From Oligoflexia bacterium (GTDB lineage Bacteria; Bdellovibrionota; UBA1018; CAIMNF01): a DNA stretch of 64,000 bases. Below the pieces are notes generated by a model. The model was not told where the DNA came from. It worked only from the letters and a program-made list of their open reading frames with translations, and searched no databases. The stretch is from NCBI GenBank assembly GCA_903831745.1, contig CAIKYX010000260.1, positions 16,433 to 80,432 on the forward strand, given 5' to 3'. Below are positions 47,247-63,102 of the stretch, one piece after another (position 1 is the stretch's first letter; every line of letters starts with the position of its first letter). The translations under genes and the position numbers were made by a program.

Positions 47247-47269
47247 AAAGTTCAGTACAAACTAGAGGC

Positions 47270-47704
47270 ATGACCACCTTTCAACAAAAGATCCTCGCTC
47301 AATTGGATAAAATGAAGTGCCTTCCGCCCCTCCTCGCGCGCATTACCCTTGCTGTCGTTTTTTTAGTAGCGGGCGCCGGCAAACTGCAGAAGCTCGATCG
47401 GGTGGCTGAATATTTTGTAAGTCTGCACATCAGCTATCCCCTATTGTCGGCTAACTTAGTGGCATGGACTGAACTCTTGATCGGCCTTTGCATGCTCTTC
47501 GGTGTGTACGCAAGAACTGCAGCGGTACCCCTAATTTGGATCATGATCATGGCGATGATTAAAACGAAGGGCGATCAATTCGGAAAATTTTCAGACCTTT
47601 TTAATTTTACTGAATTTTTATACTTGGTTTTAGCGTTCTGGATTTTGGTCGCTGGGCCAGGAGAAATTACCATTCAGCGTTGGGTGAATCGACTCAAAGG
47701 ATAA
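47270..47704 (+). CDS. DoxX-family small membrane protein
   Basis: The ORF is open from 47180, overlapping the end of the giant gene, but Met at 47270 (MTTFQQKILAQL…) is the plausible start. The TM-rich DoxX-like sequence LLARITLAVVFLVAGAGKL follows. Confidence 0.55.
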   Translation: MTTFQQKILAQLDKMKCLPPLLARITLAVVFLVAGAGKLQKLDRVAEYFVSLHISYPLLSANLVAWTELLIGLCMLFGVYARTAAVPLIWIMIMAMIKTKGDQFGKFSDLFNFTEFLYLVLAFWILVAGPGEITIQRWVNRLKG

Positions 47705-47728
47705 GACTGCCAAGAATTCAGCCTGATA

Positions 47729-48613
47729 CTAGGTGCCCACATCAATTCGATCGCAAGGCACCACAAAATTAGGCTTATCCACCGTAATCAGTACCGGCCC
47801 TAAAGTCGAAGTGGCACCGGCCTTATTCGGTTGATAGATGGTAATCGAGCGAACGCCCCAAGGAACCGTGGTAAATGAAAATGCTCCTTGAGCGGCAGGG
47901 GCCACGGGATGCAGTACCTGCTTCAGCACCCCTAAACCATCGGGATAGTTCAATTCGACCTCAGCAGTACCCACAAACGGCGCGCCTCCCTGACAAATAA
48001 ATCCACTGACCGTCGAGGTCACCATGTTTACCGGAAGCACTTCCCAAATGTCCTGAGAGAATGGATTTCCGGGAGTGGTTCCAAACACTTTGTCGGCACC
48101 GTAACTTCCGACATACCCATCATATGCGCCGTAGCCCATGTACCCAGAATACGGAGCAAGATACACAAATGGAGTACCCCAAGCATCATTCACAAAACTA
48201 GTACTGGGCCCAGTGCCTTCTACGTAGGGGCCGTTCCACCCCAGACCAAAACGAGAAGTCGCACTGACCGCATAGGCAGGTAAGCTCGGATTGGTAACCA
48301 AATCTGCGATGTGGCCAAATGCACCGATGTCGCCTACATAGCCAAAGCTACTGCGACTGCCCGAAACTTTAACATCCGGATTACCGGTCATGCCTTCACG
48401 AATTTTAGTCAGGATTGCTACCGTTTCATCAAAACGAGCGGAATCTACCTGACTCGAAATCATCTCGATCGAAATGACCGAAAGGATGACGAGCAGGCCG
48501 ATACTCATCAAGAGTTCGACCATGGTAAACCCATCTTTTTTTAAGCAAATTTTACGGCACAAATAAGAGATCATCAGCCGCTCCCGCTCCGCCACAGATT
48601 CGATCTGGCCCAC
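47729..48613 (-). CDS. Pseudopilin / type IV minor pilin with a prepilin-type N-terminal methylation motif and a large C-terminal domain; paralog of the N-terminal half of 60683..62218
   Basis: The motif is …KKDG|FTMVELLMSIGLLVILSVI (G-F-T-x-x-E, with E at +5). It shares the blocks SFGYVGDIG, FGLGWNGPYV, DAWGTPFVY and FGVRS…AGATSTLGPV with the 511-aa LamG-pseudopilin. Confidence 0.6.
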   Translation of the reverse strand: MGQIESVAERERLMISYLCRKICLKKDGFTMVELLMSIGLLVILSVISIEMISSQVDSARFDETVAILTKIREGMTGNPDVKVSGSRSSFGYVGDIGAFGHIADLVTNPSLPAYAVSATSRFGLGWNGPYVEGTGPSTSFVNDAWGTPFVYLAPYSGYMGYGAYDGYVGSYGADKVFGTTPGNPFSQDIWEVLPVNMVTSTVSGFICQGGAPFVGTAEVELNYPDGLGVLKQVLHPVAPAAQGAFSFTTVPWGVRSITIYQPNKAGATSTLGPVLITVDKPNFVVPCDRIDVGT

Positions 48614-49046
48614 AGCTCGTTAAATTTCCGCTGGGTTGATCGAATAGAAAAAGAGTTCCCCACCCATCTGTTTTAAAATCATTCGGCAGATTTTGAAAGA
48701 CCTGATCGACGTAAGGTCCACACCACCCTTGCAGCGTAAGATAAGTGTCTACATCGGCGGGATTATTGTCCACATCGCAGGCGGGCTCACCGAGATTGGT
48801 AAGTAAATGGTTAAAGTCAGCCGGATAGGTACCCACCGTTTTTCCGCCATGACTTAATTTATAGGCCTGAAGTGCAGTTCGAAGTGCCAAGGCCTTTTCG
48901 GTGGTTTCGCGACTTTGCGCGGTTCCGATCATAGGCCCTAACATCACCATGGCTCCTGCAATTAAGAGTGCAAAGAGCAAAAGAGCCAGCATCACGCCGA
49001 TCAGTCCAAAACCCTTTTGCTGGTTAGAATGAGATAACGATATCAT
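48552..49046 (-). CDS. Pseudopilin-like protein with a prepilin-type N-terminus lacking Glu+5
   Basis: 164 aa with …QQKG|FGLIGVMLALLLFALLIAGAMV (Gly at +5, as in GspK/PilX-type minor pilins). It overlaps the neighbouring genes by a few nt, which suggests an operon. Confidence 0.5.
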   Translation of the reverse strand: MISLSHSNQQKGFGLIGVMLALLLFALLIAGAMVMLGPMIGTAQSRETTEKALALRTALQAYKLSHGGKTVGTYPADFNHLLTNLGEPACDVDNNPADVDTYLTLQGWCGPYVDQVFQNLPNDFKTDGWGTLFLFDQPSGNLTSCGPDRICGGAGAADDLLFVP

Positions 49047-49494
49047 CGCCTGTTCCTAAGACTTGATCAGGCCCACGACTCGTAATCGTTCGGCCTACCT
49101 TATCGTACCAAATCGGCTGACCCCATGCATCAGTACTATAATTAGGATCTGTATCCGACACATACGGACCACGCCATCCCTGCTTTAAAAATGGATCGTA
49201 AGCAACCGAACAGGTTCCAGAACCTGGCATCGCAACTAAATCAGAAAGTAGATCTGGAACGCCCAAGCAATCGATCAAGTAACCTGGTTTTGAGAGTTGT
49301 CCTGCCGAAACGAGCCTCGCATCGCCGACAATGGCGGCTTTAAAAGCGATTAATTTTTCGGTAGTGACTGCAATTTTTGCGTCGGTTCCGAAATTAACGA
49401 ATTGGGATATTCCCACTGCTGCAAGCACCGCTAGAAGCGCAAGAACCATGAGGGTTTCGATCAGGGTAAAACCGTTTTTATGTTTTAAATCCAA
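49024..49494 (-). CDS. GspG-like pseudopilin / type IV minor pilin
   Basis: 156 aa with a canonical prepilin N-terminus (MDLKHKNG|FTLIETLMVLALLAVLAAVGISQF). Confidence 0.65.
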   Translation of the reverse strand: MDLKHKNGFTLIETLMVLALLAVLAAVGISQFVNFGTDAKIAVTTEKLIAFKAAIVGDARLVSAGQLSKPGYLIDCLGVPDLLSDLVAMPGSGTCSVAYDPFLKQGWRGPYVSDTDPNYSTDAWGQPIWYDKVGRTITSRGPDQVLGTGDDIVISF

Positions 49495-49497
49495 GAA

Positions 49498-50154
49498 CTA
49501 ATACTGGTACTCGGTACCGCCACCGTCTGCAGGACTGACACCGTCGTTATTACCTGTGTTCGCCCAAAGGTTTCCGGTTACTGAATCATAACACCAGCCG
49601 CCCTCGTTAATGGTAGCCGCGCCCGCTGTAGTACCGGCAAATGCAACACCCGCAGCACAATTCTTACCCGCAGTTCGAGTCGCTTCGCAAAGCGCTGATG
49701 AGGTCATGGTCGATACGCAATCGACGATGTCATTCGCATTCAGGGCTGCACCCGGAGCTGCAGCAATCACAGCTGTACCAGGAGCAGATAGAGTTTGATT
49801 CACTGACCATGGATTAGGTGGAATACTGCTTGCGATGAAGATTCGGTCAGCCGCATTAGCGATTTGAGTAGTGGTACACAGTGGCAAAGCACCCGCCGTG
49901 ATATCATTGAGAGCGAAACTGTCTGCAGGAGGAAATGCTCCGGTGACGTTACACCTGACCGCAACCTGAGAGGCTTGCACCGCTATCGCGTTTCGAATGA
50001 TAGCCAAGTTACCTTTAACGGCGGCTTCCTTCGCTTCTTTCGAGAAGTTCACAAATTGTGTTACACCGATGGCTGCGAGAATTCCGATCAGCAAAACCAC
50101 CATCAACATCTCGATCAGCGTAAAACCTTGATTATTTTTCTTCGATCTTTTCAC
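49498..50154 (-). CDS. Type IV pilin (major-pilin-like; Cys-rich C-terminal domain)
   Basis: 218 aa with …NNQG|FTLIEMLMVVLLIGILAAIGVTQFVNFSKEAKEAAVKGNLAIIRNAIA. It is a paralog of 57252..57821, sharing IPPNPWS and a C-terminal GWCYD motif. Confidence 0.7.
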   Translation of the reverse strand: MKRSKKNNQGFTLIEMLMVVLLIGILAAIGVTQFVNFSKEAKEAAVKGNLAIIRNAIAVQASQVAVRCNVTGAFPPADSFALNDITAGALPLCTTTQIANAADRIFIASSIPPNPWSVNQTLSAPGTAVIAAAPGAALNANDIVDCVSTMTSSALCEATRTAGKNCAAGVAFAGTTAGAATINEGGWCYDSVTGNLWANTGNNDGVSPADGGGTEYQY

Positions 50155-50308
50155 GGTTCGATTCTCCTATTGTCGATGACCCATTCCGGAAATAACTTCT
50201 TATATTCAACTATAACAACATAATTAAAGAAATGAATACATATAAATTATAGGATTTAGCTCAGGATTTTAAGTCAGACCCTTGACGGCGCTATCCTCGG
50301 ATTCACCA

Positions 50309-51535
50309 CTAGTGGTGCAAAGCCGAGTTCATTTTCCAAATCGGAAGCATGACCGCTAAGGCAATGACTGCCACCATGGCAAAAATAATCGCCAAAAGCA
50401 CGGGTTCAAGCAACTTTGCCAGGTTATTCAAACTATAATCGATTTGCACCTGATAATACCGACCGATTCTTTTCAGCACGGGCTGAAGCCTACCCGACTC
50501 CTCACCGATCGAAAGCAGGCTTTTAAACGTTCCCGGAAAAAACGGAGCCGACCCCAGGGCAATACTCAGACTCCCCCCCTTGGCAATCTCACTCTGACAA
50601 TGAGTCAGGGCCTGTTTAAAAAGCTCGTTCTTTTGAGAATCCTTCAAGGTGTCCAACGAGTCCATGAGTGGAATACCGCTATCCAGTAGCAACTCGAGAA
50701 TGACGCAGAGGTTATTCAATTCAAGATAGAGAAACACCCGCCCGAAAATCGGTAGCTTGAGCTTCAGGCGATCAATCTGAAACTTGCCTTTCGCCGTGGC
50801 CGCATATTTCTCGTACCCGAAGCGAATCGCCATGGCACCGGCTACGATCAAATACCAGTAGTGAATGAAGAAGTCTGAGCTGCTGACCACAAATTGGGTA
50901 ATTGGCGGAAGATCAGAGCCCAATGAATTCAAGAAGCCTTTTAATTTAGGAATGACAAAATAGACCACCACCCCAATCACCACCACCAGAACCACGACTA
51001 CAATTTTCGGATAAAAAAGCGCCGATTTTACTTTGGCGTCATTTTCGGCCTGCTGCTCGATCATGGTGCTGATGCGATTCAAAGTAGACTCGAGCTTACC
51101 GGTCACCTCGCCGGTCTTGATCAACCCGACCGCAACCGGATCAAATATGGCTGGATGTTTTGCGAAGGCCTCATGCAAAGTGCCACCTTCGGTAATATCC
51201 GTGGTGATACTGACCAATGCATGCCTCAGAGTTTTATTCTGGGCTTCTTCCGAAAGCAGGTTCAGCATTTGAAGCAGCGGAATACCCACCGAGATTCCGG
51301 TTTCGAGCTGGCTCATGAACACCAGTTTTTCTTCGAGCGTAATTTTAGTCGTAAACTTTTCGAATGCGTCCGAAAACATCCGGAACATGATCTTCAGATT
51401 AAAACGGTCGACACCGAGAACGATCAGGTTTTGCTTAACCAATGCCTTTCGAGCGAGAAATAAGTTGTCCGCTTCGATCGATCCTTCGACAACTTCACCT
51501 TTTCGGTTCCGAGCCCGATAATAATATTTCGGCAT
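50309..51535 (-). CDS. Type II secretion / type IV pilus inner-membrane platform protein (GspF/PilC family)
   Basis: 408 aa with two T2SSF repeats (…LSIGEESGRLQPVLKRIGRYY…) and 3 TM segments. Confidence 0.9.
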   Translation of the reverse strand: MPKYYYRARNRKGEVVEGSIEADNLFLARKALVKQNLIVLGVDRFNLKIMFRMFSDAFEKFTTKITLEEKLVFMSQLETGISVGIPLLQMLNLLSEEAQNKTLRHALVSITTDITEGGTLHEAFAKHPAIFDPVAVGLIKTGEVTGKLESTLNRISTMIEQQAENDAKVKSALFYPKIVVVVLVVVIGVVVYFVIPKLKGFLNSLGSDLPPITQFVVSSSDFFIHYWYLIVAGAMAIRFGYEKYAATAKGKFQIDRLKLKLPIFGRVFLYLELNNLCVILELLLDSGIPLMDSLDTLKDSQKNELFKQALTHCQSEIAKGGSLSIALGSAPFFPGTFKSLLSIGEESGRLQPVLKRIGRYYQVQIDYSLNNLAKLLEPVLLAIIFAMVAVIALAVMLPIWKMNSALHH

Positions 51536-51549
51536 TCTCTTTCAATCTA

Positions 51550-52896
51550 CTATGGTTCTGAAGCCTTTTCAATTTCCTGGGACATCTTTTTAGCCCCTTC
51601 GACTTTTGAAGTCGCCGTTCCATCCATCGCGGCAGAAATTTCTTTTGCGGTAGCAATCTTTCGGTCTTCTGGCGACAGGGCTTCATCGATTGTCGGCGTC
51701 AGAAAAATTACCAGCTCATTATTCGAATCATTCACCGAGCTCGAGCGAAACAGCGCGCCGATCAAAGGTATATCCATCAGAATTGGCACACCAGAATGGT
51801 TTTTTGAGTGCGATTGTTTGATCAAGCCGGCAATGACCGCAGTCTGCTTGTTTCCCACGATTACCGCAGTGTTTGCCGAATTCTTAAGAATTCCAGGAAT
51901 TCCGTCCACCGCACCACTGGCATCCGGAGTCGAGTCATTTACATCGACAATCATTTTGATCTGACCTTCGCCCACGAGAGTCGGCAAAATGGTCAAAGAC
52001 AATCCCGCTTCGACTGACGAGAGACCTCCGGTCAGAATTCCAGGAGTAGTCGCATCTTTCGTACCTTGCACCGGAACATTACTCAAGGTCTTGACCGTAT
52101 AAGTCGTACCGCTTTCAACTTTCGCCTGCCGATTATTCAAGGTGGTGACCTTCGGACGAGATAGGACTTTTGCATCACCTTTTGATTCCGCCGCAGTCAG
52201 TTTAATATCCAAGGCACGACTGCTCACATTACCGATCACACCTTTAAAACTGATGTTTGGAGTGGTCGGCCCGGGAGTCGTGATTCCATCGCCGATTCCG
52301 CTGACCGAAATGCCGATATCCTGCAAGAATTGATGCGTGGTTTCGACAATCAACGCTTCGATCATGATTTGCTTGGGTGGCGTATCAAACAGCGCCACCA
52401 CATTTTTAACCTTTTCGAGGGTGCGTGCTGACCCAACAAAAATCAGTCTATTCTGATGTTCATCGACCAGTAATTTTCCATCCGATCCGATGACCGTGGT
52501 TAATTTAGGCAGTAACTCTGAAGCAGAAGCATAGTGCAGAATAATGTCTTTGGGTTCGCCATTCACTCCCATCGATGCCGAAGCTCCCTTACGCTTGGTC
52601 ACAATCAGCTGATTGCCCGACACCATGTATTCGATCTGTTGATCGGAAGATATTTTTTCGAGCAATTGACGAGCAGTCACACCGGATTGGGCGATTGACA
52701 CATTGATCTTTGGATCATCATCCATGACCAGGGTCATACCCGATTTCAGGGCGATCATTTCGAGCACTCCTTTAAGCGGAGAGTCGACTACGTTCATCGA
52801 CAATTGCGAATCGAGCTCTTCCGAGTGGCAAATCGCCGTTAGAAAGAACCCACAAAAAAGCGTAATCGTTAAAAAGAGCTTGATTGAATTTTTCAT
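51550..52896 (-). CDS. Secretin (GspD/PilQ/MshL family), short form
   Basis: 448 aa with a signal peptide, a secretin N-domain and a C-terminal secretin domain (…GVPILMDIPLIGALF…ELVIFLTPTI). Confidence 0.85.
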   Translation of the reverse strand: MKNSIKLFLTITLFCGFFLTAICHSEELDSQLSMNVVDSPLKGVLEMIALKSGMTLVMDDDPKINVSIAQSGVTARQLLEKISSDQQIEYMVSGNQLIVTKRKGASASMGVNGEPKDIILHYASASELLPKLTTVIGSDGKLLVDEHQNRLIFVGSARTLEKVKNVVALFDTPPKQIMIEALIVETTHQFLQDIGISVSGIGDGITTPGPTTPNISFKGVIGNVSSRALDIKLTAAESKGDAKVLSRPKVTTLNNRQAKVESGTTYTVKTLSNVPVQGTKDATTPGILTGGLSSVEAGLSLTILPTLVGEGQIKMIVDVNDSTPDASGAVDGIPGILKNSANTAVIVGNKQTAVIAGLIKQSHSKNHSGVPILMDIPLIGALFRSSSVNDSNNELVIFLTPTIDEALSPEDRKIATAKEISAAMDGTATSKVEGAKKMSQEIEKASEP

Positions 52897-53318
52897 TCTT
52901 CATCCCCCTCTGCACTATCCTCTTCGTCTCCGCTCTCGACAGATGCCGGGTCGCGAATCGGGGGCAGACTGATTTCAATTTCAGAACTTTGTTTTTTGAG
53001 AATGACGTAATTCTCACCGATGCGTTCGATCATGCGGTCTTCGACAAAATCGCCGACATGAACCGACTTGCCGTTTACAACGGCCATGGGCTGACTTTTG
53101 TCATACATGATGCCACCGAGCTTGAACTTGTCTTTGACTTCGGGAATGGTGGCAAAACCAGGTTCTTTCAGAAACGGATCAACACCCCATGGAAGCTTCG
53201 GGTTGACGAGCAAATAGCCCACATCCATATCGGTAATCAGGTCGAAAGCCGGCCCTTCAGCGAGGGCGACCGATGTACCGAAACAAAAAATGCAGAAAAC
53301 CCATTTGAATTGCTTCAT
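52893..53318 (-). CDS. PilP-like pilot / inner-membrane lipoprotein of the pilus assembly subcomplex (putative)
   Basis: 141 aa with a signal peptide, a beta-sandwich-like segment (AVVNGKSVHVGDFVEDRMIERIGENYVILKK) and an acidic C-terminal tail. It sits immediately upstream of the secretin, as in pilMNOPQ. Confidence 0.45.
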   Translation of the reverse strand: MKQFKWVFCIFCFGTSVALAEGPAFDLITDMDVGYLLVNPKLPWGVDPFLKEPGFATIPEVKDKFKLGGIMYDKSQPMAVVNGKSVHVGDFVEDRMIERIGENYVILKKQSSEIEISLPPIRDPASVESGDEEDSAEGDEE

Positions 53319-53866
53319 GGGTGCCTCGCTACATAGCTATAGAGTTTGATGCTGGCCTTACAGCGCTTCATTTCTTCCGTAATTCGACTGATTTCGATCG
53401 AGTCGACTTCAGTCAATAAGGCCGAGTCCTCGAGCTTTTCGAGAAATTTTCCAATGGCAATAAAAGGGGCCTCTACCTCTACTTTATAGAGCGTCTGGGT
53501 GTAGCCGCTGAAAGTCGATTCACTGTCTGAGGTAATCTTGTTGATAATGAACGCCTCGTTTTTCGAGTTTTCAACCAAGCCGGTGACCACACTCGAAAAA
53601 AGCTCATTCGACTTCAGGTATTTTTCGAGCAAGCGCTGAGACGCCGTGACCGACTGGGATGCCGGAGCGCGGGTCGCGAGCTTCTTGAATTCGAGTTGTT
53701 CCTTGGCCAGAGTGTTTCGAGCAGTGACGACCTCGACCTCGAGCTTTTTCAGCTCGAGACTTTTAGGGCTTGCCCAAAAGTGCTGAAAAAGAAAGAGAAC
53801 TCCTACGATAAAGGCGCTGGTTAAATAACTTTCACGTTTAGAGAGTCGGATTTTTTTGAAAATCAT
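53315..53866 (-). CDS. PilO/GspM-like pilus assembly protein (putative)
   Basis: 183 aa with a single N-terminal TM segment followed by coiled-coil and ferredoxin-like regions. Position within the cluster supports the call. Confidence 0.45.
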   Translation of the reverse strand: MIFKKIRLSKRESYLTSAFIVGVLFLFQHFWASPKSLELKKLEVEVVTARNTLAKEQLEFKKLATRAPASQSVTASQRLLEKYLKSNELFSSVVTGLVENSKNEAFIINKITSDSESTFSGYTQTLYKVEVEAPFIAIGKFLEKLEDSALLTEVDSIEISRITEEMKRCKASIKLYSYVARHP

Positions 53867-54432
53867 CCCCGCCCTCCTGTCGTCGCATCGATCGGAACTG
53901 AAAATTCGAACTTATAACGAGAAGGGCTGATCTTAGCCTCTTTTTCGGAATAGTCGATTCTCACTTGTCCGAAATGATGGGATTGCTCGAGAATGGTCAA
54001 AAACTCGGCCACCAATTCCTGCGAAACCGACTCACCCCTGAGAATGATTCGATCCGAGTCTTTCTCGGTACCGTTCGAAAAGCTGGTCAGCCAAATGCCA
54101 TCCGGAATGAGGATACTCAACTCTTTAAAAAATGCAGACCAATAGGTCTTGCGGTTCAGAACTTTTTGCAGCGAAGTCAGAGTCTCGCTCTTTTGATTCA
54201 AATCCTTGTTTTGTTGCGAAAGGAGCGCAATCTTCTGATGAAGTTCGCTCGCCGTGGCATCGATCTGAGCCAACTCTTTCTTTTGCGAGCGCGAAGACAA
54301 AAATGCCTGAGAACTCATTCCTACTGCATAGACCACGAGCACGGCTGCAAGCGCAAGAGGAAGCATCTCATGCGAAAGCCTGAGTCGGGGGCGCAGATCG
54401 GCGGGAATGAAATTCAGGTGCTTCTGACTCAT
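53863..54432 (-). CDS. PilN-like pilus assembly protein
   Basis: 189 aa with HLNFIPADLRPRLR (compare PilN INLLPWR), then a TM segment and a coiled coil. Confidence 0.5.
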   Translation of the reverse strand: MSQKHLNFIPADLRPRLRLSHEMLPLALAAVLVVYAVGMSSQAFLSSRSQKKELAQIDATASELHQKIALLSQQNKDLNQKSETLTSLQKVLNRKTYWSAFFKELSILIPDGIWLTSFSNGTEKDSDRIILRGESVSQELVAEFLTILEQSHHFGQVRIDYSEKEAKISPSRYKFEFSVPIDATTGGRG

Positions 54433-55241
54433 AATGGCTTTTTAATAGCCTCCTCTTGATAAATTCTCAAAACGATACGGCGGTTTTTAACCAGATTCGA
54501 AAGAATGGCCTCACCATTGACCGAACGATTCGGAAGCAACGGACGAGAATCTCCGTAACCGATTACTTTCATCATTCCCTTGGTAAACCCCTGCTCTTCA
54601 AACACATGAACGAGCGACGCAGCCCGGGCTGCCGAGAGTTCCCAGTTCGAGCCGTAGATCCGGCGCTGATGCACCACAGGCGAATCATCCGTGTGCCCTT
54701 CGACTTCAATCACGGTTTTTTCGGGAGCAGTCTTCAAGAGCTCGACAATTTCCTTCAATACAGGCTGCGATTTCTCGTCGAGCTTGGCAGAACCGATCAT
54801 GAACAATTGATCAGAACTTAAAGTGACTCGAAGCGCACTCGAACCCTCTTCTCTTTCTAGTTTTTCGATTCCCTGAATCTTTTTTTCTTCAAACTCTTTT
54901 TCGAGCCCGGCCAGGCGATCGACTTGCACCGCTGCAACAGGCAAAGAAGCTGGTGCACGCACCGCTACTGGCGCTGGAGCTTGAACCTTGGCCACGATAT
55001 TTGCCTCGGTAGGACCTTGCGAAATATTAGAAGTCTTGGAATAAGTAGTCATGTCGATGGACGAGGTTTCGATCGACAGCAAAAAGGCTGCGAGCGTCGC
55101 CAGCACAAAAGTACTCAGATCAGCCGATTTGCGAGATTTTTTCGGCGAAGCCTTTAGTTTGGGCTGAGCCTTTGCTGATTTGAGCAAAGTCTTTTTCACG
55201 CGCTTTTGGCTGATAAAATTAATTCTTCGATCGGGTTTCAT
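54429..55241 (-). CDS. OmpA/MotB C-terminal-domain peptidoglycan-binding protein, membrane-anchored
   Basis: 270 aa with a TM segment (LSTFVLATLAAFLLSI) and an OmpA_C-like domain (VEGHTDDSP…NWELSAARAASLV). It is embedded between pilN and pilM. Confidence 0.7.
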   Translation of the reverse strand: MKPDRRINFISQKRVKKTLLKSAKAQPKLKASPKKSRKSADLSTFVLATLAAFLLSIETSSIDMTTYSKTSNISQGPTEANIVAKVQAPAPVAVRAPASLPVAAVQVDRLAGLEKEFEEKKIQGIEKLEREEGSSALRVTLSSDQLFMIGSAKLDEKSQPVLKEIVELLKTAPEKTVIEVEGHTDDSPVVHQRRIYGSNWELSAARAASLVHVFEEQGFTKGMMKVIGYGDSRPLLPNRSVNGEAILSNLVKNRRIVLRIYQEEAIKKPL

Positions 55242-56314
55242 GCGGCCTTCTTTCCGTCAGGAACACTGACGAGGGCCAGCCCTACTGCGGTGCCCATGTA
55301 TGGGGCCAATAGTGCGATTTCTTCATGAGACTGATCGAGCGATGAGCTATAGATATCGATATTGCGAAACGGATTTACGACCTGGGTCGGAACCTTGAAA
55401 AACATCTCATGAACCTTGTCGATGCCTTTTACCTGACTTGCCCCACCGAGAAGCAGAATTCGATCCACTTTTCCGAAGCTTTCGGGACATTCTTTGTAAA
55501 ATTCAACCAGAGCCTTCAACCCCTTCAGGATCTCCATGAAAGTTTCATCCAGTACTTCACCGACGGTGCCTCGATTTTCTTCTGGGGCTAAAAAGTTATA
55601 GCCGAGTTTTACGCGTTCGGCTTCTTCGTAAGACATATTGCATTTTTCTCGCAGACGCTGATTCACGCTGCCGAAAGCAGTTTCTTCCGTTCGAGTCAGG
55701 GTCAGTACGCCATCTGTGATTAATCCCGAATTAATATGTGATTCGCCGAGATCAAGAACAATGACCACTTCCTTCGGGTCAATATAACCATTAAAATCGA
55801 GCATGGCAGTAATCGCCATCATTTCTGATTCGATCGAACTGGGTTTAAGCCCGGACTCTTCGAGCACTTTCATCTGAGCAACAACGAGATCTCGTTTTAC
55901 ACAGAAAGCCTTGATCAGGGTAACATCCGGATCGTCGTTTTTATCTGCGGTTACCCAGAAATCACAGCATTGATCGTCCATCGACATGCGCGCGAGCTCG
56001 CCGACTTCCTGCGGAACCACTTGCAGCAGTTCCTTTTCAGGCATCTTCGGCAAATTAAAACTGAACGTCATCACATCGCTGTCGCGAACCGTGGTTGCTG
56101 CCGACGACGACGACAATTGCTGTACTTCGATTGAAGCCTTCAGTACCTCATCCCGATTACTGCGGGCCGGAAAATCTTCCGAAGTCTGCAACAGGTCCTG
56201 AAAAAAATGTCCGGCGAGGTGAACCTTGCCGTCTTTGGCACGCGTGAGTTTGACCCCTTTGATCGTTCGGGCTCCAAGATCGACACCTAATACCTGCTTC
56301 TTGAAAAAATTCAT
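55238..56314 (-). CDS. pilM: PilM-like actin-fold pilus assembly ATPase-like protein
   Basis: 358 aa starting VLGVDLGARTIKGVKL…; PilM/FtsA fold with …ILLLGGASQVKGI…. Confidence 0.8.
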   Translation of the reverse strand: MNFFKKQVLGVDLGARTIKGVKLTRAKDGKVHLAGHFFQDLLQTSEDFPARSNRDEVLKASIEVQQLSSSSAATTVRDSDVMTFSFNLPKMPEKELLQVVPQEVGELARMSMDDQCCDFWVTADKNDDPDVTLIKAFCVKRDLVVAQMKVLEESGLKPSSIESEMMAITAMLDFNGYIDPKEVVIVLDLGESHINSGLITDGVLTLTRTEETAFGSVNQRLREKCNMSYEEAERVKLGYNFLAPEENRGTVGEVLDETFMEILKGLKALVEFYKECPESFGKVDRILLLGGASQVKGIDKVHEMFFKVPTQVVNPFRNIDIYSSSLDQSHEEIALLAPYMGTAVGLALVSVPDGKKAA

Positions 56315-57162
56315 CGCTGACTCCTTAGAAATGAAAACAATCCTTTGGATTTTAAATTGAGGGCTTCGTTCGCCACTTTTTCATGAATGAGGCGAATGCG
56401 TTTTTCTTCGGCTGCCTGAATGACCCGTTCACTGAGCTGATTGATCCGACGAGGAATTCCGTTACTCAGGGTGTAAATGATTTTCATCACTGAAGCTTCG
56501 AAGCGAATGAAGTTACCGTTTCCTACCTGTTCAATGCGGCTTTTAATATATCGCTCGGTCTCGAGTCGATCGAGCCCCCTGAGCGTGGCATGACATCCGA
56601 TTCGTTGTTTCAACTGTCGTAGCTCAGGACGCTGTAGAGTTGCATCGAGCTCTGGCTGTCCGATCAGCACAATTTGAAGAAGTTTTTGAGTACGGGTCTC
56701 GAGATTGGTCAATAAGCGGATCATTTCGAGTGCTTCGACGCTCAGCGATTGCGCTTCATCGATCATCAGAATCGAGTGTTTGCCGGAATCTACGTTGGTG
56801 AGTAAAAAACGGTTCAGGTGATCGACGTAAGCCTTGCCAGTTTGAAATTCAACTGCAGGCTTGGGCACTTCGAACTCTTCGCATATCGCTTGCAATAACT
56901 CGATCTCGGTAAATTTAGGATAAAGAATCAGCGCCGTATTCGCCTGATTTTCGAACGAGGCGAGCAACATTCGCGCAAGCAAGGTCTTGCCGGTTCCTAC
57001 TTCGCCGGTCAACACACTAAAACCTTTGCCCTGCCTGAGCGCCTGACTCAGATCATTCAACGCACGATTGTGCTGATGAGAGGCGTAATAAAACTCCGGG
57101 TCAGGAGTTTCACCGAAAGGATTTACTTCTAAATTATAAAATTTGCTGTAATAGCTTTTCAT
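56311..57162 (-). CDS. ExeA/GspA/MshM-like AAA ATPase, short form without a C-terminal peptidoglycan-binding domain
   Basis: 283 aa: …VNPFGETPDPEFYYASHQHNRALNDL…LTGEVGTGKTLLARML…ILMIDEAQSLS…; AAA_22-like. Confidence 0.75.
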   Translation of the reverse strand: MKSYYSKFYNLEVNPFGETPDPEFYYASHQHNRALNDLSQALRQGKGFSVLTGEVGTGKTLLARMLLASFENQANTALILYPKFTEIELLQAICEEFEVPKPAVEFQTGKAYVDHLNRFLLTNVDSGKHSILMIDEAQSLSVEALEMIRLLTNLETRTQKLLQIVLIGQPELDATLQRPELRQLKQRIGCHATLRGLDRLETERYIKSRIEQVGNGNFIRFEASVMKIIYTLSNGIPRRINQLSERVIQAAEEKRIRLIHEKVANEALNLKSKGLFSFLRSQR

Positions 57163-57251
57163 AGGCTTCTCTCAATTCCTTTCGGAAATCAAAGAGAAGT
57201 ACCTGAATTTATTTTAAACATTTGAATTCGGGCGATAGAAATTTGACGCTT

Positions 57252-57821
57252 TTAGAACGTATGTTCGTTAGTGGTTTTATTGAAAGCACTATTCGCCCAG
57301 ATCTGGCCGGCATAGGCGTCACCCGCCAAAGCGTCATAACACCAACCATACTCGCCAGCCGACCCCCACGCTGATCCCGCACAATCCGTAGCGCTGTTCG
57401 GCCCAAGACCTGCGCAACTTCCGCCCCCATTACAAGCAGTGACCGTCGAAGGATTGCCGGTACTGTCGCTCCAGGGATTCGGCGGAATCGTTCCGTTTGC
57501 AACAAACGTTCGGTCCGAGGCCAAAAGCACTTGCGAGGTCGTGCAAGGAGCTGATCCAAAAGTAATATCATTATTATTTAAATTCGCGAGACTGGGCACA
57601 CTTGCGTCCGAAACTCCACAACGGAGCCGCATCTGCGCGTTCTGCATGCCGATCGCCCGCCTCAAAATGGCCAGATCTGCTTTGACTGCAGCATCCTTGG
57701 AGTCGGCACCAAAGTTTACGAATTCCGTTACCCCGATTGCCGCTAATACCCCAAGCAGCAAAATGACCATCAAGACTTCAATCAAACTGAAACCTGTGAT
57801 TTTATGACGACTCCCGCCCAT
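57252..57821 (-). CDS. Type IV pilin, second major-pilin-like paralog
   Basis: 189 aa with …KITG|FSLIEVLMVILLLGVLAAIGVTEFVNF…, IPPNPWS and a C-terminal GWCYD motif. Confidence 0.7.
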   Translation of the reverse strand: MGGSRHKITGFSLIEVLMVILLLGVLAAIGVTEFVNFGADSKDAAVKADLAILRRAIGMQNAQMRLRCGVSDASVPSLANLNNNDITFGSAPCTTSQVLLASDRTFVANGTIPPNPWSDSTGNPSTVTACNGGGSCAGLGPNSATDCAGSAWGSAGEYGWCYDALAGDAYAGQIWANSAFNKTTNEHTF

Positions 57822-57952
57822 GTCCCAATAATAATGGTTTTATTCAATTATATCTAAAAAATAGTATAAACCCTGAAAAACGCCAGAGAAATGACGACAC
57901 TCTCATTTCCTTACTGCATCAAGTTCACAGACAGGTTTGCCGATGAGAAAGC

Positions 57953-59674
57953 ATGTCGAAGCCCTTGGAATCTAAAGGAACCCACCTCGCCTCCGGCCGA
58001 AAATTCGGCGAGGTGTTGCTCGAAATGAACTTGCTCACGCAAGAAGAAATCGATGCGGCAGTATTGCGTGGATCCGAAAAGAGAATGCGCTTGGGCGATT
58101 TACTTCTCAGTGAAGGAAAAATTTCGAGTGAAAATCTCGCGCGAGCCCTAGCCAGTCAGTACGATCTCGAATACCTCGACCTTTCTTCGATGATCTTCAA
58201 CAAGGAAGCTTCAAAAATCATTCCAGAAAAAATTGCCCGAACTTTTCGCATCCTCCCGATCGAATCCAAAGACGGTTTTGTTACTCTTTGTGCCGACGAC
58301 CCGATTCAACTGGTCAAACTCGATAACATCAAAAAAAGCATCGAGGGCACGATCATCCTGAAAGTCGGAACCAAGGAACAAATCGAAGCCGCATTGAACA
58401 AAGTTTATGCCTATGACAATTCGGTAGACCGGATTGTCAAACACCTGGCCAAAAAGCAGGAACTGAAAAAACCTACAGTGACTGAGAGCCTGCTGAACAG
58501 CGACAATCCGAAGGACGCCAATCCGTCGATCGAAGCGCTCGTCAATAAATTCATCGAACGCGCCATCATCGATCGTGCGAGCGACATTCATATCGATCCG
58601 GCCGAAGAAAAAGTGCGGGTTCGAGTGCGAATTGATGGCCTCCTGCATGAATTGCACACCTACCCCGTTCCGTTGCACGTGGCGGTAGTTTCGCGACTCA
58701 AAGTCCTTTCGAACCTCGATATTGCCGAAAAAAGGCATCCTCAGGATGGACACTTCAATTATACAAAAGGTTCCCATGCCGTCGACATCCGTATTTCGAC
58801 GCTGCCTACGGTACACGGCGAAAAACTGGTCCTTCGTTTGCTCGACAAGAAGAAAATGCGCGGAAACCTGCTTCAGATCGGAATGAGCCCAGAGATCGAA
58901 GCCTCGGTTCAAGCATTACTCGAACGTCCTCATGGCGTCATCTTTCTTACCGGTCCTACCGGAAGTGGTAAAACCACCTCTCTTTATTCGATGTTAAATC
59001 AGATCAACGGCATCGAACGAAATGTCATTACGGTTGAAGATCCGGTCGAATACAAATTTGATGTCATCAACCAGATTCAGGTAAACGAAAAGGCCGGATT
59101 GAATTTCGCTGGCATCTTAAGAAACATCCTTCGTCAGGATCCGGATGTGATCATGATCGGTGAGGTCCGCGATCAAGAAACTGCAGACATCGCCATTCGC
59201 GCGGCCCTGACCGGCCACTTGGTGTTAAGCACGCTTCACACCAATGATTCCGTCAGCACGCCGAATCGCCTGATCGATATGGGCGTCGAACCTTTTTTGA
59301 TTTCATCTGCCCTGGTGGCTGTCATTGCCCAGAGGTTGGTGCGAGTGCTCTGCACCCATTGCCGCGAAAAAGTTGCCATTACCGAAGAAGAACTTCGCTT
59401 GCTCGGCACCAGCGCCCTCAGCGTCGATAGCGTCATTTACGGTCCCGTCGGTTGCCAGCACTGCTTTCATTCAGGGTATCAACATCGAATCGCCCTTTTC
59501 GAATACATGCCGATCGACGAGCACATTCGAAGTGCGATCATTCGTCGTGATTCGCCCGATCAATTGACCAAATATCTGAACGACAATGGATTCATCAGCA
59601 TGCGCCAGGACGGAATTTATAAGATCGCCGCCGGCATCACTTCAGTCGAAGAAGTCCTGAAAGCCACGCTCTAA
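57953..59674 (+). CDS. GspE/PilB/MshE-family assembly ATPase with an N-terminal T2SSE_N/MshEN-like domain
   Basis: 573 aa with Walker A GPTGSGKTT, the Asp/His boxes and a tetracysteine motif (CTHC…CQHC). The N-terminal repeats are KFGEVLLEMNLLTQEEIDAAV and RLGDLLLSEGKISSENLARALASQ. Confidence 0.9.
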   Translation: MSKPLESKGTHLASGRKFGEVLLEMNLLTQEEIDAAVLRGSEKRMRLGDLLLSEGKISSENLARALASQYDLEYLDLSSMIFNKEASKIIPEKIARTFRILPIESKDGFVTLCADDPIQLVKLDNIKKSIEGTIILKVGTKEQIEAALNKVYAYDNSVDRIVKHLAKKQELKKPTVTESLLNSDNPKDANPSIEALVNKFIERAIIDRASDIHIDPAEEKVRVRVRIDGLLHELHTYPVPLHVAVVSRLKVLSNLDIAEKRHPQDGHFNYTKGSHAVDIRISTLPTVHGEKLVLRLLDKKKMRGNLLQIGMSPEIEASVQALLERPHGVIFLTGPTGSGKTTSLYSMLNQINGIERNVITVEDPVEYKFDVINQIQVNEKAGLNFAGILRNILRQDPDVIMIGEVRDQETADIAIRAALTGHLVLSTLHTNDSVSTPNRLIDMGVEPFLISSALVAVIAQRLVRVLCTHCREKVAITEEELRLLGTSALSVDSVIYGPVGCQHCFHSGYQHRIALFEYMPIDEHIRSAIIRRDSPDQLTKYLNDNGFISMRQDGIYKIAAGITSVEEVLKATL

Positions 59675-59699
59675 CTGGGTGTCGTACACTCATTTAATA

Positions 59700-59815
59700 G
59701 GTAAGTTGGTAAGTTGTCGGACACTTATTTGGTAAGTTGGTAAGTTGTCGGACACTTATTTGGTAAGTTGGTAAGTTGTCGGACACTTATTTAATAAATA
59801 AGTTGTCGGACACCT
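59700..59815. repeat. Tandem direct repeats: 3 perfect copies of the 31-bp unit GGTAAGTTGGTAAGTTGTCGGACACTTATTT plus a partial fourth copy
   Basis: Units lie at 59700-59730, 59731-59761 and 59762-59792, with the partial copy …AAGTTGTCGGACACCTA at 59801-59817. The array fills the convergent intergenic space between the gspE/pilB stop (59674) and the TPR-gene stop (59819). Confidence 0.85.
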
Positions 59816-59818
59816 AAT

Positions 59819-60586
59819 TTACTCTTCAGTAGTAGAATAAGTTTTTAATTTTGAGATTCGGGCTGAGAGCTTTTCTTTGACCAGCGGATCAATTCGGGCG
59901 CTGGCTTCATAAATTTCATACTCTTGTGCAGCTTCCGCTGGTTCATTGATATTTTCGAGTGCGACCGCCAGGTTAAAATGACCTTCAGTCAGCTTGGGGT
60001 TCAAAATCAGGCTTTTTTGCAGGTAACTCACGGCTTCGTCATACTGATGAAGCGCAAGACTTAACGATCCCAGATTATTGTAGATCGTCGCCAGCACCGT
60101 TTGAGGCGTGTTTTCTAGATGCAGGGCCTCGATGAATATTTTTTTAGCGACCGGGTATTCCTTCAGTTTAAAATGAACCATTCCAAGATTATTCAAAATT
60201 TCTGCCGAATGTGGATAGTTTTTAGCGAGAGACTCGAGGCTCTCCAAAGCACCGTTGTAATCCTGAAGCTCGAACGAATGAATCGCACTTCGACTCACTC
60301 GAAGATCAGCGGGTTCAGCCACTTTTTCAGCTCCAATACCAGGAACCAAGGGCTTCTCTGCTTTGACTGCGATCTGAACCGCCCGAAGCTTGAGTTGAAC
60401 CACACGAACTCCCAAATAGGCTGAAGCCACGAAAAACAGGCCCATCAGCGCAAGTCGAACGCGCGAGATCTTTTTCTTACCGTCAAAAATCACCGGAGGA
60501 GGCGGTGGAACCACCCGTAAATCGGGCCGCCCGTTCGCGACTTCCTCGGTCTTTTCTTGAAATAACTGTTTTAGCACTCGACTCAT
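59819..60586 (-). CDS. TPR-repeat protein, membrane-anchored (MshN/PilF-like candidate)
   Basis: 255 aa with a Pro-rich N-terminus, one TM segment (LALMGLFFVASAYLGVRVV) and at least 4 TPR motifs. Confidence 0.6.
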   Translation of the reverse strand: MSRVLKQLFQEKTEEVANGRPDLRVVPPPPPVIFDGKKKISRVRLALMGLFFVASAYLGVRVVQLKLRAVQIAVKAEKPLVPGIGAEKVAEPADLRVSRSAIHSFELQDYNGALESLESLAKNYPHSAEILNNLGMVHFKLKEYPVAKKIFIEALHLENTPQTVLATIYNNLGSLSLALHQYDEAVSYLQKSLILNPKLTEGHFNLAVALENINEPAEAAQEYEIYEASARIDPLVKEKLSARISKLKTYSTTEE

Positions 60587-60682
60587 ATCTGTCTCCCCTT
60601 CATTTCGGCGAAAGCGTCAAAAATCTTGAATGTTTTTTGACGCTCTAGCCAGCGGGCGTCCCTGCTGTATATAATTGAATTC

Positions 60683-62218
60683 ATGAATCTGCTTCGCTCT
60701 TCCAAAGGCTTTACTTTGGTCGAACTCGTGATGGTGCTCGGAATGATCAGCATTTTTGCTGTGCTATCCATATCGCTCATCAGCAGCACTACTGATCAGT
60801 CCCGCTTCGAAAAGACGGTCGAACAAATGAAGCAAATCCGCGAAGGCCTGATCGGATCCGTAAATCACGAAAATTCGGGTCACCAACGCTCGTTCGGATA
60901 TTTGGGTGATATCGGCGATTTGCCCTCGACCGCAGATGGTATCAACGGACTGATTAAGAACCTTCGTTATTCTTCGTGGTCGATGGACCCCGCATCGAGA
61001 ATCGGTGTAGGTTGGAACGGGCCTTACCTTCAACATATTTCAGACACCGGCAATAATTTTCTCGTCGACGGCTGGGGAAATCCTTTTATTTATGACAACA
61101 CGATCGACCCTGCCACGATTACGAGTTATGGCGCAGACGGAGCTCCCTTTGGAACCGGATACAACTCCGATATCGTGGTTCAGATTCCCTATTCTACTTC
61201 GACTGGAACACTTCACGGAGTGATCTTGAACAGTGGCGTTGCATGGGATAGCGACGCCCAGATTGTGGTGAACTATCCGTATGAGGGTACTGTCACTCAA
61301 CTTCCGGCGATCACCGTCGCACCGGGCGATGTGGGCGCATTCACTACTCCACAAACCATTCCGTTCGGCGTCAGGTCTGCGATGGTTTACTTACCCACCC
61401 AAGCAGGTGCAACCACCACGCTCGGCCCGGTGATCTTTACGATGGATAAACCGGATACGTTGGTAAAGTTTGATATTGTAAATGCGACCGGAACACCGGC
61501 CCCACTTTGTACCTCGGCCATGCTTGCTGCGAGCTGGACCCCGGAATATGCTTCAATTACCCATTATATTCCGATGGACGATTGCACCGCCGGCATGTCG
61601 CCCGCCTGCGAAGACATGATTACCGGAAATCCAACTGCGCTGACCTTGAATGGCTCGGCCGTGATTGGCGCTGGTAACTTTAGCACGCAGGGTCTGATTT
61701 GCGATGGCACCGCACTTTGCGATGCCCAACTGCAAGCACCGCTCTTGACTCGAAACTTTACCATCGCATTTTGGTACAATCCCAATTCAATCGGTGCAGC
61801 TAACCAATACCGTCCGTTTGGCGGAGGAGAATCGATCGCCGGAAATAACGGAATCGATTTTATCATCAATGACGGAACCGGAGCAAAAGTGATGTTCAGA
61901 AATGCCGGTACCAATTTTGATTTTTCGTGTGGAGCCTCTCCGCCGACCGGAATCTGGGAACACGTGGTCATTACCTCATCGTCCGCACTGGGAACATTCT
62001 GCTACCGGAACGGCGTCTTACGCGGAGCTAATCCGGCCGCAAAAATCACCACCCTCCTTCCGGGAGCCGAAGCCAATTTTGTTTACATCGGCAGCAGTGG
62101 AGACGGAGACCTGGGCGGAAGCTCTTTCGATGGCGCCGTAGATGACTACGCAATCTGGAACGTCATGCTGACCCCTCCGGAAGTAAGAACCGTCTACAAT
62201 TGTCAATCCAGCTTTTGA
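60683..62218 (+). CDS. Pseudopilin fused to a C-terminal LamG/concanavalin-A-like lectin domain (candidate pilus tip adhesin)
   Basis: 511 aa with …SSKG|FTLVELVMVLGMISIFAV (prepilin motif, E at +5). The central region is paralogous to 47729..48613. The C-terminal LamG-like signature reads …GTFCYRNGVL…FDGAVDDYAIWNVMLTPPEV. Confidence 0.65.
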   Translation: MNLLRSSKGFTLVELVMVLGMISIFAVLSISLISSTTDQSRFEKTVEQMKQIREGLIGSVNHENSGHQRSFGYLGDIGDLPSTADGINGLIKNLRYSSWSMDPASRIGVGWNGPYLQHISDTGNNFLVDGWGNPFIYDNTIDPATITSYGADGAPFGTGYNSDIVVQIPYSTSTGTLHGVILNSGVAWDSDAQIVVNYPYEGTVTQLPAITVAPGDVGAFTTPQTIPFGVRSAMVYLPTQAGATTTLGPVIFTMDKPDTLVKFDIVNATGTPAPLCTSAMLAASWTPEYASITHYIPMDDCTAGMSPACEDMITGNPTALTLNGSAVIGAGNFSTQGLICDGTALCDAQLQAPLLTRNFTIAFWYNPNSIGAANQYRPFGGGESIAGNNGIDFIINDGTGAKVMFRNAGTNFDFSCGASPPTGIWEHVVITSSSALGTFCYRNGVLRGANPAAKITTLLPGAEANFVYIGSSGDGDLGGSSFDGAVDDYAIWNVMLTPPEVRTVYNCQSSF

Positions 62219-62342
62219 AAAAGCTACCAAAACACTCGGGATTTTTAAATTCAATGTATTTATTAATTCGCTCTTTTTTTATTCCCCGCCCAGAATTTCA
62301 GAGACTTAAAGGTCCTGTTTAAGGCAAAATGGTAGACAAATC

Positions 62343-63083: not shown

Positions 63084-63102
63084 AGGACGATTTTTAAACG
63101 AT

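Follow-up and report, generated by a model that had tools for sequence, protein, structure and literature searches.

An OmpA-C protein with a PilN-type N-terminus in a type IV filament gene cluster of uncultured Bdellovibrionota

A 64-kb stretch of DNA (the window) from the metagenomic contig CAIKYX010000260.1 of an Oligoflexia bacterium contains, at positions 47729–62218 (~14.5 kb), a cluster of 16 genes for a type IV filament apparatus, in which an OmpA-C protein with a PilN-type N-terminal motif is encoded between the genes for PilM and PilN. It is possible, with a probability of about 40%, that the cluster represents an undescribed type IV filament subtype confined to Bdellovibrionota, where a MotB-derived OmpA-C protein has acquired the PilM-binding peptide of PilN and ties the PilM ring to the cell wall in an FtsA–FtsN-like manner, replacing the AMIN domains of PilQ. 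The new element is the OmpA-C protein with its PilN-type N-terminus, the remaining make-up being largely known from mannose-sensitive haemagglutinin (MSH) pili. Family assignments were made by Pfam and NCBIfam profile searches of the window proteins, and the curated cut-offs given below are those of the NCBIfam models.

The OmpA-C gene, which had been placed between pilN and pilM by an earlier annotation made from the letters of this DNA without database searches (hereafter, the sequence-only reading), indeed occupies this position, and does so in all clade-A loci as well (the clades of related loci are described below). The nearest NCBIfam families of the bitopic protein are MotD/MotB. In all 37 orthologues, the motif x-[IVLMA]-N-[FL]-[ILVM] is found within residues 3–12 (for example, RINFI, RVNFL, RMNLLV and RINLLV; several read R[IVM]NLLV), and is followed by a basic stretch, one transmembrane segment and then ~100 residues that cannot be aligned. 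The same 37 proteins contain the OmpA domain only and no MotB_plug (PF13677), while the next-best database matches beyond them are true MotB proteins with both MotB_plug and a SYADLMTLL transmembrane segment. The OmpA-C domain appears to be MotB-derived. The sequence ADLST at the start of the transmembrane segment of the window protein also resembles MotB, but a MotB-like proton-channel anchor was rejected, because the Asp of ADLST and the segment are not conserved in the orthologues and MotB_plug is absent.

The N-terminal consensus of PilN is INLLP. PilN starts with MIRINLL in the ordinary type IVa pilus (T4aP) loci (L013, L014), with RINL[LFY] in clade B, and with H[LVI]NFIP in clade A, and a PilM-binding-type motif is present at the N-terminus of all PilN orthologues. 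The N-terminal motif of the OmpA-C protein is a PilN-type signature, conserved in the orthologues. It has been reported that the groove of PilM clamps the highly conserved N-terminal motif of PilN (PMC5805733; PMC5285504). Because a motif of this type is conserved in the OmpA-C protein and PilM clamps such a motif of PilN, we infer that the OmpA-C protein docks to PilM in the cytoplasm and to peptidoglycan in the periplasm, bracing the machine. In ordinary PilQ, peptidoglycan is bound by the AMIN domains (PMC5285504); the Pfam search of the 448-aa secretin encoded here detected Secretin_N and Secretin domains only, and no AMIN domain.

The arrangement proposed here would be similar to that of FtsA and FtsN, in which an actin-like cytoplasmic protein binds the short N-terminus of a bitopic peptidoglycan-binding protein. 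FtsA is a structural relative of PilM and binds the cytoplasmic N-terminus of FtsN (PMC7613929; PMC5285504). The two bitopic proteins are not homologous, however; FtsN carries a SPOR domain, and the protein described here an OmpA-C domain. The absence of a peptidoglycan-binding domain from the 283-aa ExeA-like ATPase, pointed out in the sequence-only reading, was confirmed (no PF01471 match), but its suggestion that the OmpA-C protein supplies this function to the ATPase in trans is probably not correct. The N-terminal motif points to PilM instead, and the short AAA ATPase of clade B, retained there without any OmpA gene, makes complementation in trans less likely.

Related loci were collected by a genome scan and contig look-ups. 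At least 14 independent contigs from uncultured Bdellovibrionales/Oligoflexia carry the cluster in conserved form, and PilM has ~48 homologues, all of which originate from metagenomes or metagenome-assembled genomes, the named ones being Bdellovibrionales. Clade A (L002–L007, L017/L018, L019–L022 and one JGI contig), with PilM proteins 50–63% identical to that of the window, has the gene order AAA–PilM–OmpA–PilN–PilO–HR (homology region protein)–secretin, followed by pilC, the major-type pilin gene or genes and three genes for GspG-like pseudopilins, whereas the extension ATPase, the tetratricopeptide repeat (TPR) protein and one further pseudopilin are encoded on the upstream side. In clade B (L009, L010, L012; PilM 31–33% identical), the order is AAA–TPR–PilM–PilN–PilO–HR–secretin, and there is no OmpA gene. 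The ordinary T4aP loci of Bdellovibrio and Myxococcota (L013, L014) show 24% identity. The gene set and order are conserved, and the cluster is therefore a real, vertically conserved system of the lineage; the machine was found only in uncultured Bdellovibrionales/Oligoflexia. In one subclade, a gene for a 290-aa lipoprotein signal peptidase-like protein lies beside the cluster (L003, 2651–4630; L005, 2707–4685; L022, 1115–3061); the L022 copy matches Peptidase_A8, and those of L003 and L005 are similar to it in sequence. Next to it, a gene for a protein of 341–365 aa is found, which is NHL-repeat-like in L003 and L005, with no Pfam match recorded for the L022 copy.

Every gene listed in the sequence-only reading was found in the list of open reading frames (ORFs) of the window, with Pfam matches supporting the inventory (Table 1). 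Seven consecutive genes, from that of the AAA ATPase to that of the secretin, overlap each next one by 4 bp, which fits a single operon. The pilC gene starts 14 bp past the secretin gene and is followed by four pilin genes. The genes of the extension ATPase and of the 511-aa pilin are on the plus strand, with the minus-strand TPR gene between them. As had been noted from the letters, neither a prepilin peptidase (Peptidase_A24) nor a PilT-like protein was found among the window ORFs of at least 150 aa. A promoter/terminator scan of positions 46800–63200 yielded counts at the level of shuffled sequences and was uninformative, and an Rfam scan of the cluster for c-di-GMP (cyclic di-GMP) or other riboswitches gave no match at E-values up to 1. 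In the window, pilC is co-directional with the secretin gene, while in all clade-A relatives (L002, L003, L005–L007, L017, L020–L022) the two are on opposite strands. This looks like a single-gene inversion; a search for inverted repeats flanking pilC, which might explain it, found nothing convincing.

Table 1. Genes of the filament cluster and the neighbouring giant gene, with the matches and features of their products.
Product	Position	Strand	Matches and features
Giant protein, 5940 aa	29424–47246	+	
Large GspG-fold pseudopilin, 294-aa ORF	47729–48613	-	N_methyl; weak T2SSG; motif DAWGTPFVY
Minor pseudopilin without Glu5, 164 aa	48552–49046	-	N_methyl, 23.5 bits; mature N-terminus FGLIG; motif DGWGTLFLF
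GspG-like pseudopilin, 156 aa	49024–49494	-	N_methyl, 29.6 bits; motif DAWGQPIWY
Major-pilin-like prepilin, 218 aa	49498–50154	-	N_methyl, 33.1 bits; 10-aa leader; 6 Cys
PilC/GspF inner-membrane platform protein	50309–51535	-	T2SSF, E = 3e-53; GspF 288 bits and PilC 276 bits, both under the cut-offs
Short secretin, 448 aa	51550–52896	-	N0-like region; one Secretin_N; Secretin, E = 3e-43
Periplasmic HR-domain protein (GspB/PilP/GspC class), 141 aa	52893–53318	-	T2SSB, E = 9e-5; signal peptide
PilO	53315–53866	-	Pfam PilO, weak in the window copy (16.5 bits)
PilN	53863–54432	-	Pfam PilN, E = 1e-11, 44.9 bits; N-terminal HLNFIP; transmembrane segment 19–46
Bitopic OmpA-C protein	54429–55241	-	OmpA, E = 4e-16, 59.7 bits; N-terminal RINFI; one transmembrane segment; variable linker
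PilM, actin-like, cytoplasmic	55238–56314	-	PilM_2, E = 5e-27, 95.2 bits
Short ExeA/GspA/MshM-family AAA ATPase, cytoplasmic, 283 aa	56311–57162	-	AAA_22, E = 4e-26, 92 bits
Second major-pilin-like prepilin, 189 aa	57252–57821	-	N_methyl; 6 Cys
PilB/GspE/MshE-type extension ATPase	57953–59674	+	T2SSE, E = 9e-132, 440 bits; MshEN N-domain; tetracysteine motif
Membrane-anchored TPR protein (MshN/TadD/PilF class, putative orthology)	59819–60586	-	TPR families; transmembrane segment 45–65
Modular pseudopilin, 511 aa: GspG-like pilin module and C-terminal ConA/LamG lectin-like domain	60683–62218	+	N_methyl; T2SSG, 31.6 bits; Laminin_G_3, 75.8 bits

Comparison with the curated models revealed that the products of the cluster score below the cut-offs of the established systems: 561 bits on the GspE model (cut-off, 630), 555 on PilB (TIGR02538; 675.65), 288 on GspF (424), 190 on PilQ (TIGR02515; 284), 149 on GspD (351), 96.6 on MshL (TIGR02519; 250.2), and 86 on PilM (133). 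Since the cut-offs of PilB, GspE, GspF, GspD, PilQ and MshL were all missed, the cluster appears to form a separate lineage. No match to GspL, GspI, GspJ or GspK was found among the cluster proteins, and those to GspC (E-value of about 0.005), GspH (18–29 bits; cut-off, 80) and GspM (1 of 11 orthologues) were below the thresholds; in their stead, the cluster has PilM, PilN and PilO.

The MSH systems have been described as single loci that lack a prepilin peptidase gene and encode MshM, MshN, MshE, the PilMNOP-like MshI/J/K and also a secretin (Denise et al. 2019, PMC6668835), and mshA, mshE and mshG, along with mshL and mshM, are mandatory in the MSH model of TXSScan (PMC6668835). In its make-up, the cluster is closest to the MSH class. 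It resembles the MSH pilus (Vibrio cholerae, a TXSScan class) in being a single locus without genes for a prepilin peptidase or PilT, and in having a short AAA ATPase that is MshM/ExeA-like and cytoplasmic, a TPR protein encoded next to the AAA gene in the relatives (cf. mshM–mshN), an MshEN-domain ATPase, PilM/N/O/P-like alignment proteins, an AMIN-less secretin and several minor pilins. On the other hand, its secretin fails the MshL model and scores higher on PilQ (190 versus 96.6 bits); the minor pilins are paralogues with the GspG fold, the OmpA-C gene is located between pilM and pilN, and the first c-di-GMP motif of the ATPase is degenerate. The host phylum, Bdellovibrionota, is not mentioned among the carriers of MSH systems in the searched text of PMC6668835. 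As the secretin failed the MshL test, the cluster was not filed as an MSH member. The set of parts proposed in the sequence-only reading was recovered in full: a complete apparatus for a type IV filament, together with an ATPase resembling ExeA/MshM, a TPR protein and a peptidoglycan-binding protein of the OmpA-C type. Its accessory set is real, but the atypicality of the mixture had been overstated, for it is largely the normal make-up of MSH systems (PMC6668835).

With the canonical type IVa pili of Myxococcus, Pseudomonas and Thermus, the cluster shares separate PilM, PilN and PilO proteins, an HR protein followed by the secretin, an ATPase of PilB length with the Zn motif, the PilC platform, and major pilins with short leaders, and the best PDB matches of its proteins are PilQ, PilM and PilB/PilF. 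T4aP genes are commonly scattered among several loci, whereas here all genes form one locus, in which PilT and PilD are missing and AMIN is not encoded. Further differences are an ExeA-like ATPase and a GspB-like HR protein instead of the lipoprotein PilP, minor pilins of the GspG-like and not the FimU/PilVWX type, and scores below all T4aP equivalog or subfamily cut-offs.

Two further systems were compared. The atypical type II secretion system (T2SS) "Pul" of Geobacter/Pelobacter consists of PulE, F, M, N, O, P and Q together with PulG/OxpG, uses GspG-type pseudopilins and secretes OmpB (PMC3543383). By described gene content, it resembles the cluster in its PilMNOPQ-style scaffold and GspG-type pseudopilins, but is without the ExeA-like ATPase, the OmpA-C protein, the TPR protein and the major-type pilins. 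The GspA/GspB (ExeA/ExeB) pair has an AAA ATPase of the same family and a periplasmic HR protein that matches T2SSB. Unlike canonical GspA, the cluster ATPase has neither a transmembrane segment nor a PF01471 domain; a cleavable signal peptide takes the place of the GspB membrane anchor in the HR protein; the two genes are not adjacent; and peptidoglycan binding resides on a third protein, apparently tied to PilM. Altogether, the cluster may be described as encoding a T4aP-derived machine with an MSH-like make-up on an unclassified branch.

The MshEN region of the extension ATPase matches PF05157 (36 bits) and the c-di-GMP domain NF053729 (41.3 bits, above the cut-off of 38), and c-di-GMP motif II (R46–Q69; motif from PMC5013675) is intact. 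The PDB matches were PilF (455 bits), PilB (435 bits) and GspE (385 bits); in this comparison, PilF/PilB are the nearest over the full length of the protein, and over the core GspE is about as near. The closest relatives in a library of 50%-identity representatives are only 43–48% identical. Of the 85 50%-cluster representatives nearest to it, 23 were PilB-like and 16 GspE-like at E-values up to 1e-185. A phylogeny of the ATPase, named as a check in the sequence-only reading, was run as a neighbour-joining tree, where the cluster ATPases group with 11 representatives, and all nine of those scanned fall short of the cut-offs for PilB and for GspE. The ATPase is placed by these comparisons on an unclassified branch, neither PilB nor GspE, with no clean assignment.

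The top-scoring relatives of the ATPase (P0292–P0301) are proteins of ~1000 aa, most of which match the query in two stretches, and may be tandem double PilB/GspE-like ATPases. On the contig JGI 3300059473, a T2SSE protein of 386 aa, about the size of PilT, is encoded at locus coordinates 361–1521, ~5 kb from the cluster, with clpS and clpA between. It is a possible retraction ATPase.

The secretin has its top PDB matches to PilQ (111 bits, versus 74 for GspD), and PilM has its own to Myxococcus PilM (91.5 bits). PilM, PilN and PilO are encoded by separate genes, as in type IVa pili, and Pfam PilO was matched in all 11 PilO orthologues (best E-value, 1e-8). The 141-aa HR protein occupies the usual position of PilP and contains an invariant WG-DPF motif. 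Pfam T2SSB (GspB) was matched by 10 of 11 HR-protein orthologues at E-values up to 0.05, and PilP by none of them. The HR domains of GspB, GspC and PilP have a common fold, and each of them binds the secretin's N0 domain (PMC9239104), and so the role guessed for this "PilP-like" protein stands, although its sequence is GspB-like and never matches PilP. Searches of PDB profiles with the HR-protein and PilO alignments returned chance-level matches only, Pfam on the orthologue sets being informative instead.

The short AAA ATPase scores 235 bits on TIGR03015, which is under the cut-off, and is ~45% identical to many proteins named ExeA/GspA by their sources. No transmembrane or hydrophobic segment was found in it, and no peptidoglycan-binding domain (PF01471) was matched. 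ExeA/GspA-like ATPases without a periplasmic part have precedents (PMC9239104). In clade B, as in the extra AAA–TPR pairs of L002 and L017, the TPR gene immediately follows the AAA gene. In these two loci, besides the AAA gene adjacent to pilM, a second ExeA-like AAA gene is followed by a TPR gene (L002, 4900–6584; L017, 2233–4034), which is the same arrangement as that of mshM–mshN.

N_methyl was matched on six proteins (Table 1), which fall into two families, namely, two major-type pilins (218 and 189 aa) and four pseudopilins with the GspG motif (156, 164, 294 and 511 aa). The major-type pilins are 41% identical to each other, with six Cys and a 10-aa leader each; one to three copies, 37–49% identical, are found per related locus. 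The top NCBIfam match of the 218-aa prepilin is the Myxococcus-type PilA (39.6 bits, far under the cut-off). The four pseudopilins are mutually paralogous and contain the GspG-type fold motif D[AG]WG..[FIW].[YF]. The T2SSG cut-off was passed by the 511-aa protein alone (31.6 versus 21 bits), and on TIGR01710 (GspG) the pseudopilins reached at most 44.5 bits (cut-off, 88.85). The 156-aa protein is the best-conserved pilin (orthologues 45–60% identical) and shares the alpha-1 N-terminus with both major-type pilins (46–53% identity over the first ~55–65 residues). The true start of the 294-aa protein is probably an internal Met giving a 15-aa leader; this protein is paralogous to the N-terminal half of the 511-aa pilin (37.5% identity over 280 aa), and its orthologues in L003, L005–L007, L009, L010 and L012 are 38–45% identical.

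Position 5 of the 164-aa pseudopilin is occupied by G, S or T in nine of nine orthologues, and Glu5 is absent from the window copy too. The absence of Glu5 in subunits of the GspK/PilX type is a mark of the filament tip, and the 164-aa protein is a candidate tip or initiating subunit, comparable with GspK/PilX. The LamG module of the 511-aa pilin is confined to the window and L002, the other relatives examined having versions of 276–287 aa. Lectin-bearing modular pilins of S. sanguinis are known adhesins (PMC9934059).

A possible mode of action may be outlined as follows. The six prepilins would be processed by a prepilin peptidase encoded elsewhere. The four GspG-fold pseudopilins would form an initiation or tip complex, with the Glu5-less one at the apex and the LamG-bearing one as an adhesin, below which the two major-type pilins would polymerise on the PilC platform with the MshEN-type ATPase as their motor. 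PilM, PilN and PilO, along with the GspB-like HR protein, would bridge the platform and the short secretin's N0 domain; assembly of the secretin may be aided by the short ExeA/MshM-like ATPase and the TPR protein. As the secretin would be unable to bind peptidoglycan, the OmpA-C protein would fix the machine to the wall, with its N-terminal peptide on PilM and its periplasmic domain on peptidoglycan.

Several observations weigh against this reading. The proposed binding of PilM by the OmpA-C N-terminus is deduced from a motif of 4–5 residues, and the NF/NL variant of the OmpA-C protein does not co-vary with PilN of the same locus: in L020–L022, the former has NLL and the latter NFIP, a combination that neither supports nor excludes a shared pocket. 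Motif I for c-di-GMP is degenerate in the ATPase (R, L, G10 and Q are lost), which scores about equally on the GspE and PilB models (561 and 555 bits) and has nearest relatives that are unclassifiable. A secretion pseudopilus would also fit the GspG-like character of four of the six pilins, the occurrence of a GspA-like and a GspB-like protein, and the lack of PilT in the window. The system is not known from any cultured organism.

The product of the machine is rather likely to be an adhesive pilus. In favour of this are the presence of two to three major-type pilin paralogues per locus, which are among the least conserved parts (37–49% identity, versus 55–70% for the motor proteins), one pilin with a lectin-type module, and the MshEN domain of the ATPase with motif II intact. 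Alternatively, a short pseudopilus made mainly of the 156-aa GspG-like protein might push folded periplasmic proteins through the secretin as in a T2SS; candidate substrates would be the hydrolases or surface proteins of a bacterial predator, possibly with large adhesins among them. Such a system would account for the four pseudopilins with the GspG motif and weak-to-significant T2SSG matches, for the 156-aa protein being the best-conserved pilin, for the ExeA/GspA-family ATPase, the GspB-like HR protein and the lack of PilT in the window, as well as for the 561 bits of the ATPase on the GspE model, and the PilMNOPQ-style Pul system is a precedent (PMC3543383). It is nevertheless considered unlikely: no GspC, GspL, GspM or GspH–K was detected above threshold and no Gsp equivalog cut-off was reached, the secretin and PilM are nearer to T4aP proteins, two to three variable Cys-rich major-type pilins and a lectin pilin are difficult to reconcile with a periplasmic pseudopilus, and no candidate substrate gene is conserved across the loci.

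A pilus for DNA uptake is far less probable still. Competence systems of the HofQ/ComE type have short AMIN-less secretins and PilMNOP-like proteins, and the 448-aa secretin, with its weak HofQ match (96.8 bits), and the PilMNO-type genes would agree with this. However, the HofQ cut-off (554 bits) is far from reached, no ComEA, ComEC or DprA is encoded nearby among the window proteins, and the lectin pilin, the MshM-like ATPase and the TPR protein are foreign to competence loci. An adhesive pilus is retained as the preferred product.

The sequence-only reading had also coupled the cluster to the adjacent gene for a giant Sec-dependent protein, proposing that the machine is its dedicated exporter or partner in adhesion. 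The giant protein has a Sec signal peptide, GLUG motifs, Calx-beta domains and, N-terminally, Big_1 (Ig-like) domains, apparently consists of three large repeated modules, as read from the sequence, and is, as had been stated, without a recognised outer-membrane targeting domain. In the window genome, 483 bp separate the end of its gene from the end of the last pseudopilin gene. These points speak for the coupling, yet the two are transcribed convergently, with a DoxX gene between them, and fragments of the giant protein gave no tblastn match in L001–L019. Nine relatives have sequence beyond the last pseudopilin gene; no homologue of the giant gene was found at this flank (0 of 9), which is taken up by genes for an ABC-F ATPase, dehydrogenases, an NHL-repeat protein, an unrelated 778-aa ORF, an HNH protein, an RND pump, lactate permease (twice) or saccharopine dehydrogenase; the nearest long-contig relative (PilM 61% identical) has the HNH gene there. 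The adjacency was seen only in the window genome among the relatives compared, and the occurrence of the cluster without the giant gene is an outcome which the sequence-only reading had itself named as a refutation of its proposal. The giant protein is not part of the pilus system, and a role of the cluster as its exporter or adhesion partner, already contradicted by synteny, is highly improbable. This removes a tempting, unsupported link of the giant adhesin to a dedicated secretin pathway.

Other genes of the window were recorded as well. Directly downstream of the lectin pilin gene, positions 62343–63083 encode an Stp1-type PP2C Ser/Thr phosphatase (234.7 bits; cut-off, 230), a gene which was not found beside the cluster in the relatives. 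A three-gene module for PrkA kinase, DUF444 and SpoVR is located on the minus strand at 23760–28428, a 595-aa protein joining LPG_synthase_C and rhomboid domains is encoded at 19954–21738, and an IS3-type transposase (rve integrase core and HTH_21) at 2438–3268.

In the known solutions for bracing such machines against the wall, the wall-binding module is carried by the secretin (AMIN, SPOR) or by GspA/GspB. Here, it is seemingly placed on the cytoplasmic PilM ring by means of a copied PilN peptide, which would exemplify the reuse of a docking motif in envelope-spanning machines. If this is true, at least two membrane partners compete for a single groove of PilM, by which a pilus motor would be anchored or regulated in a novel manner. 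In predators of the Bdellovibrio group, type IV pili play a central part in attaching to prey and invading it, and a second, lineage-specific filament machine in uncultured freshwater members of this group would add to their repertoire.

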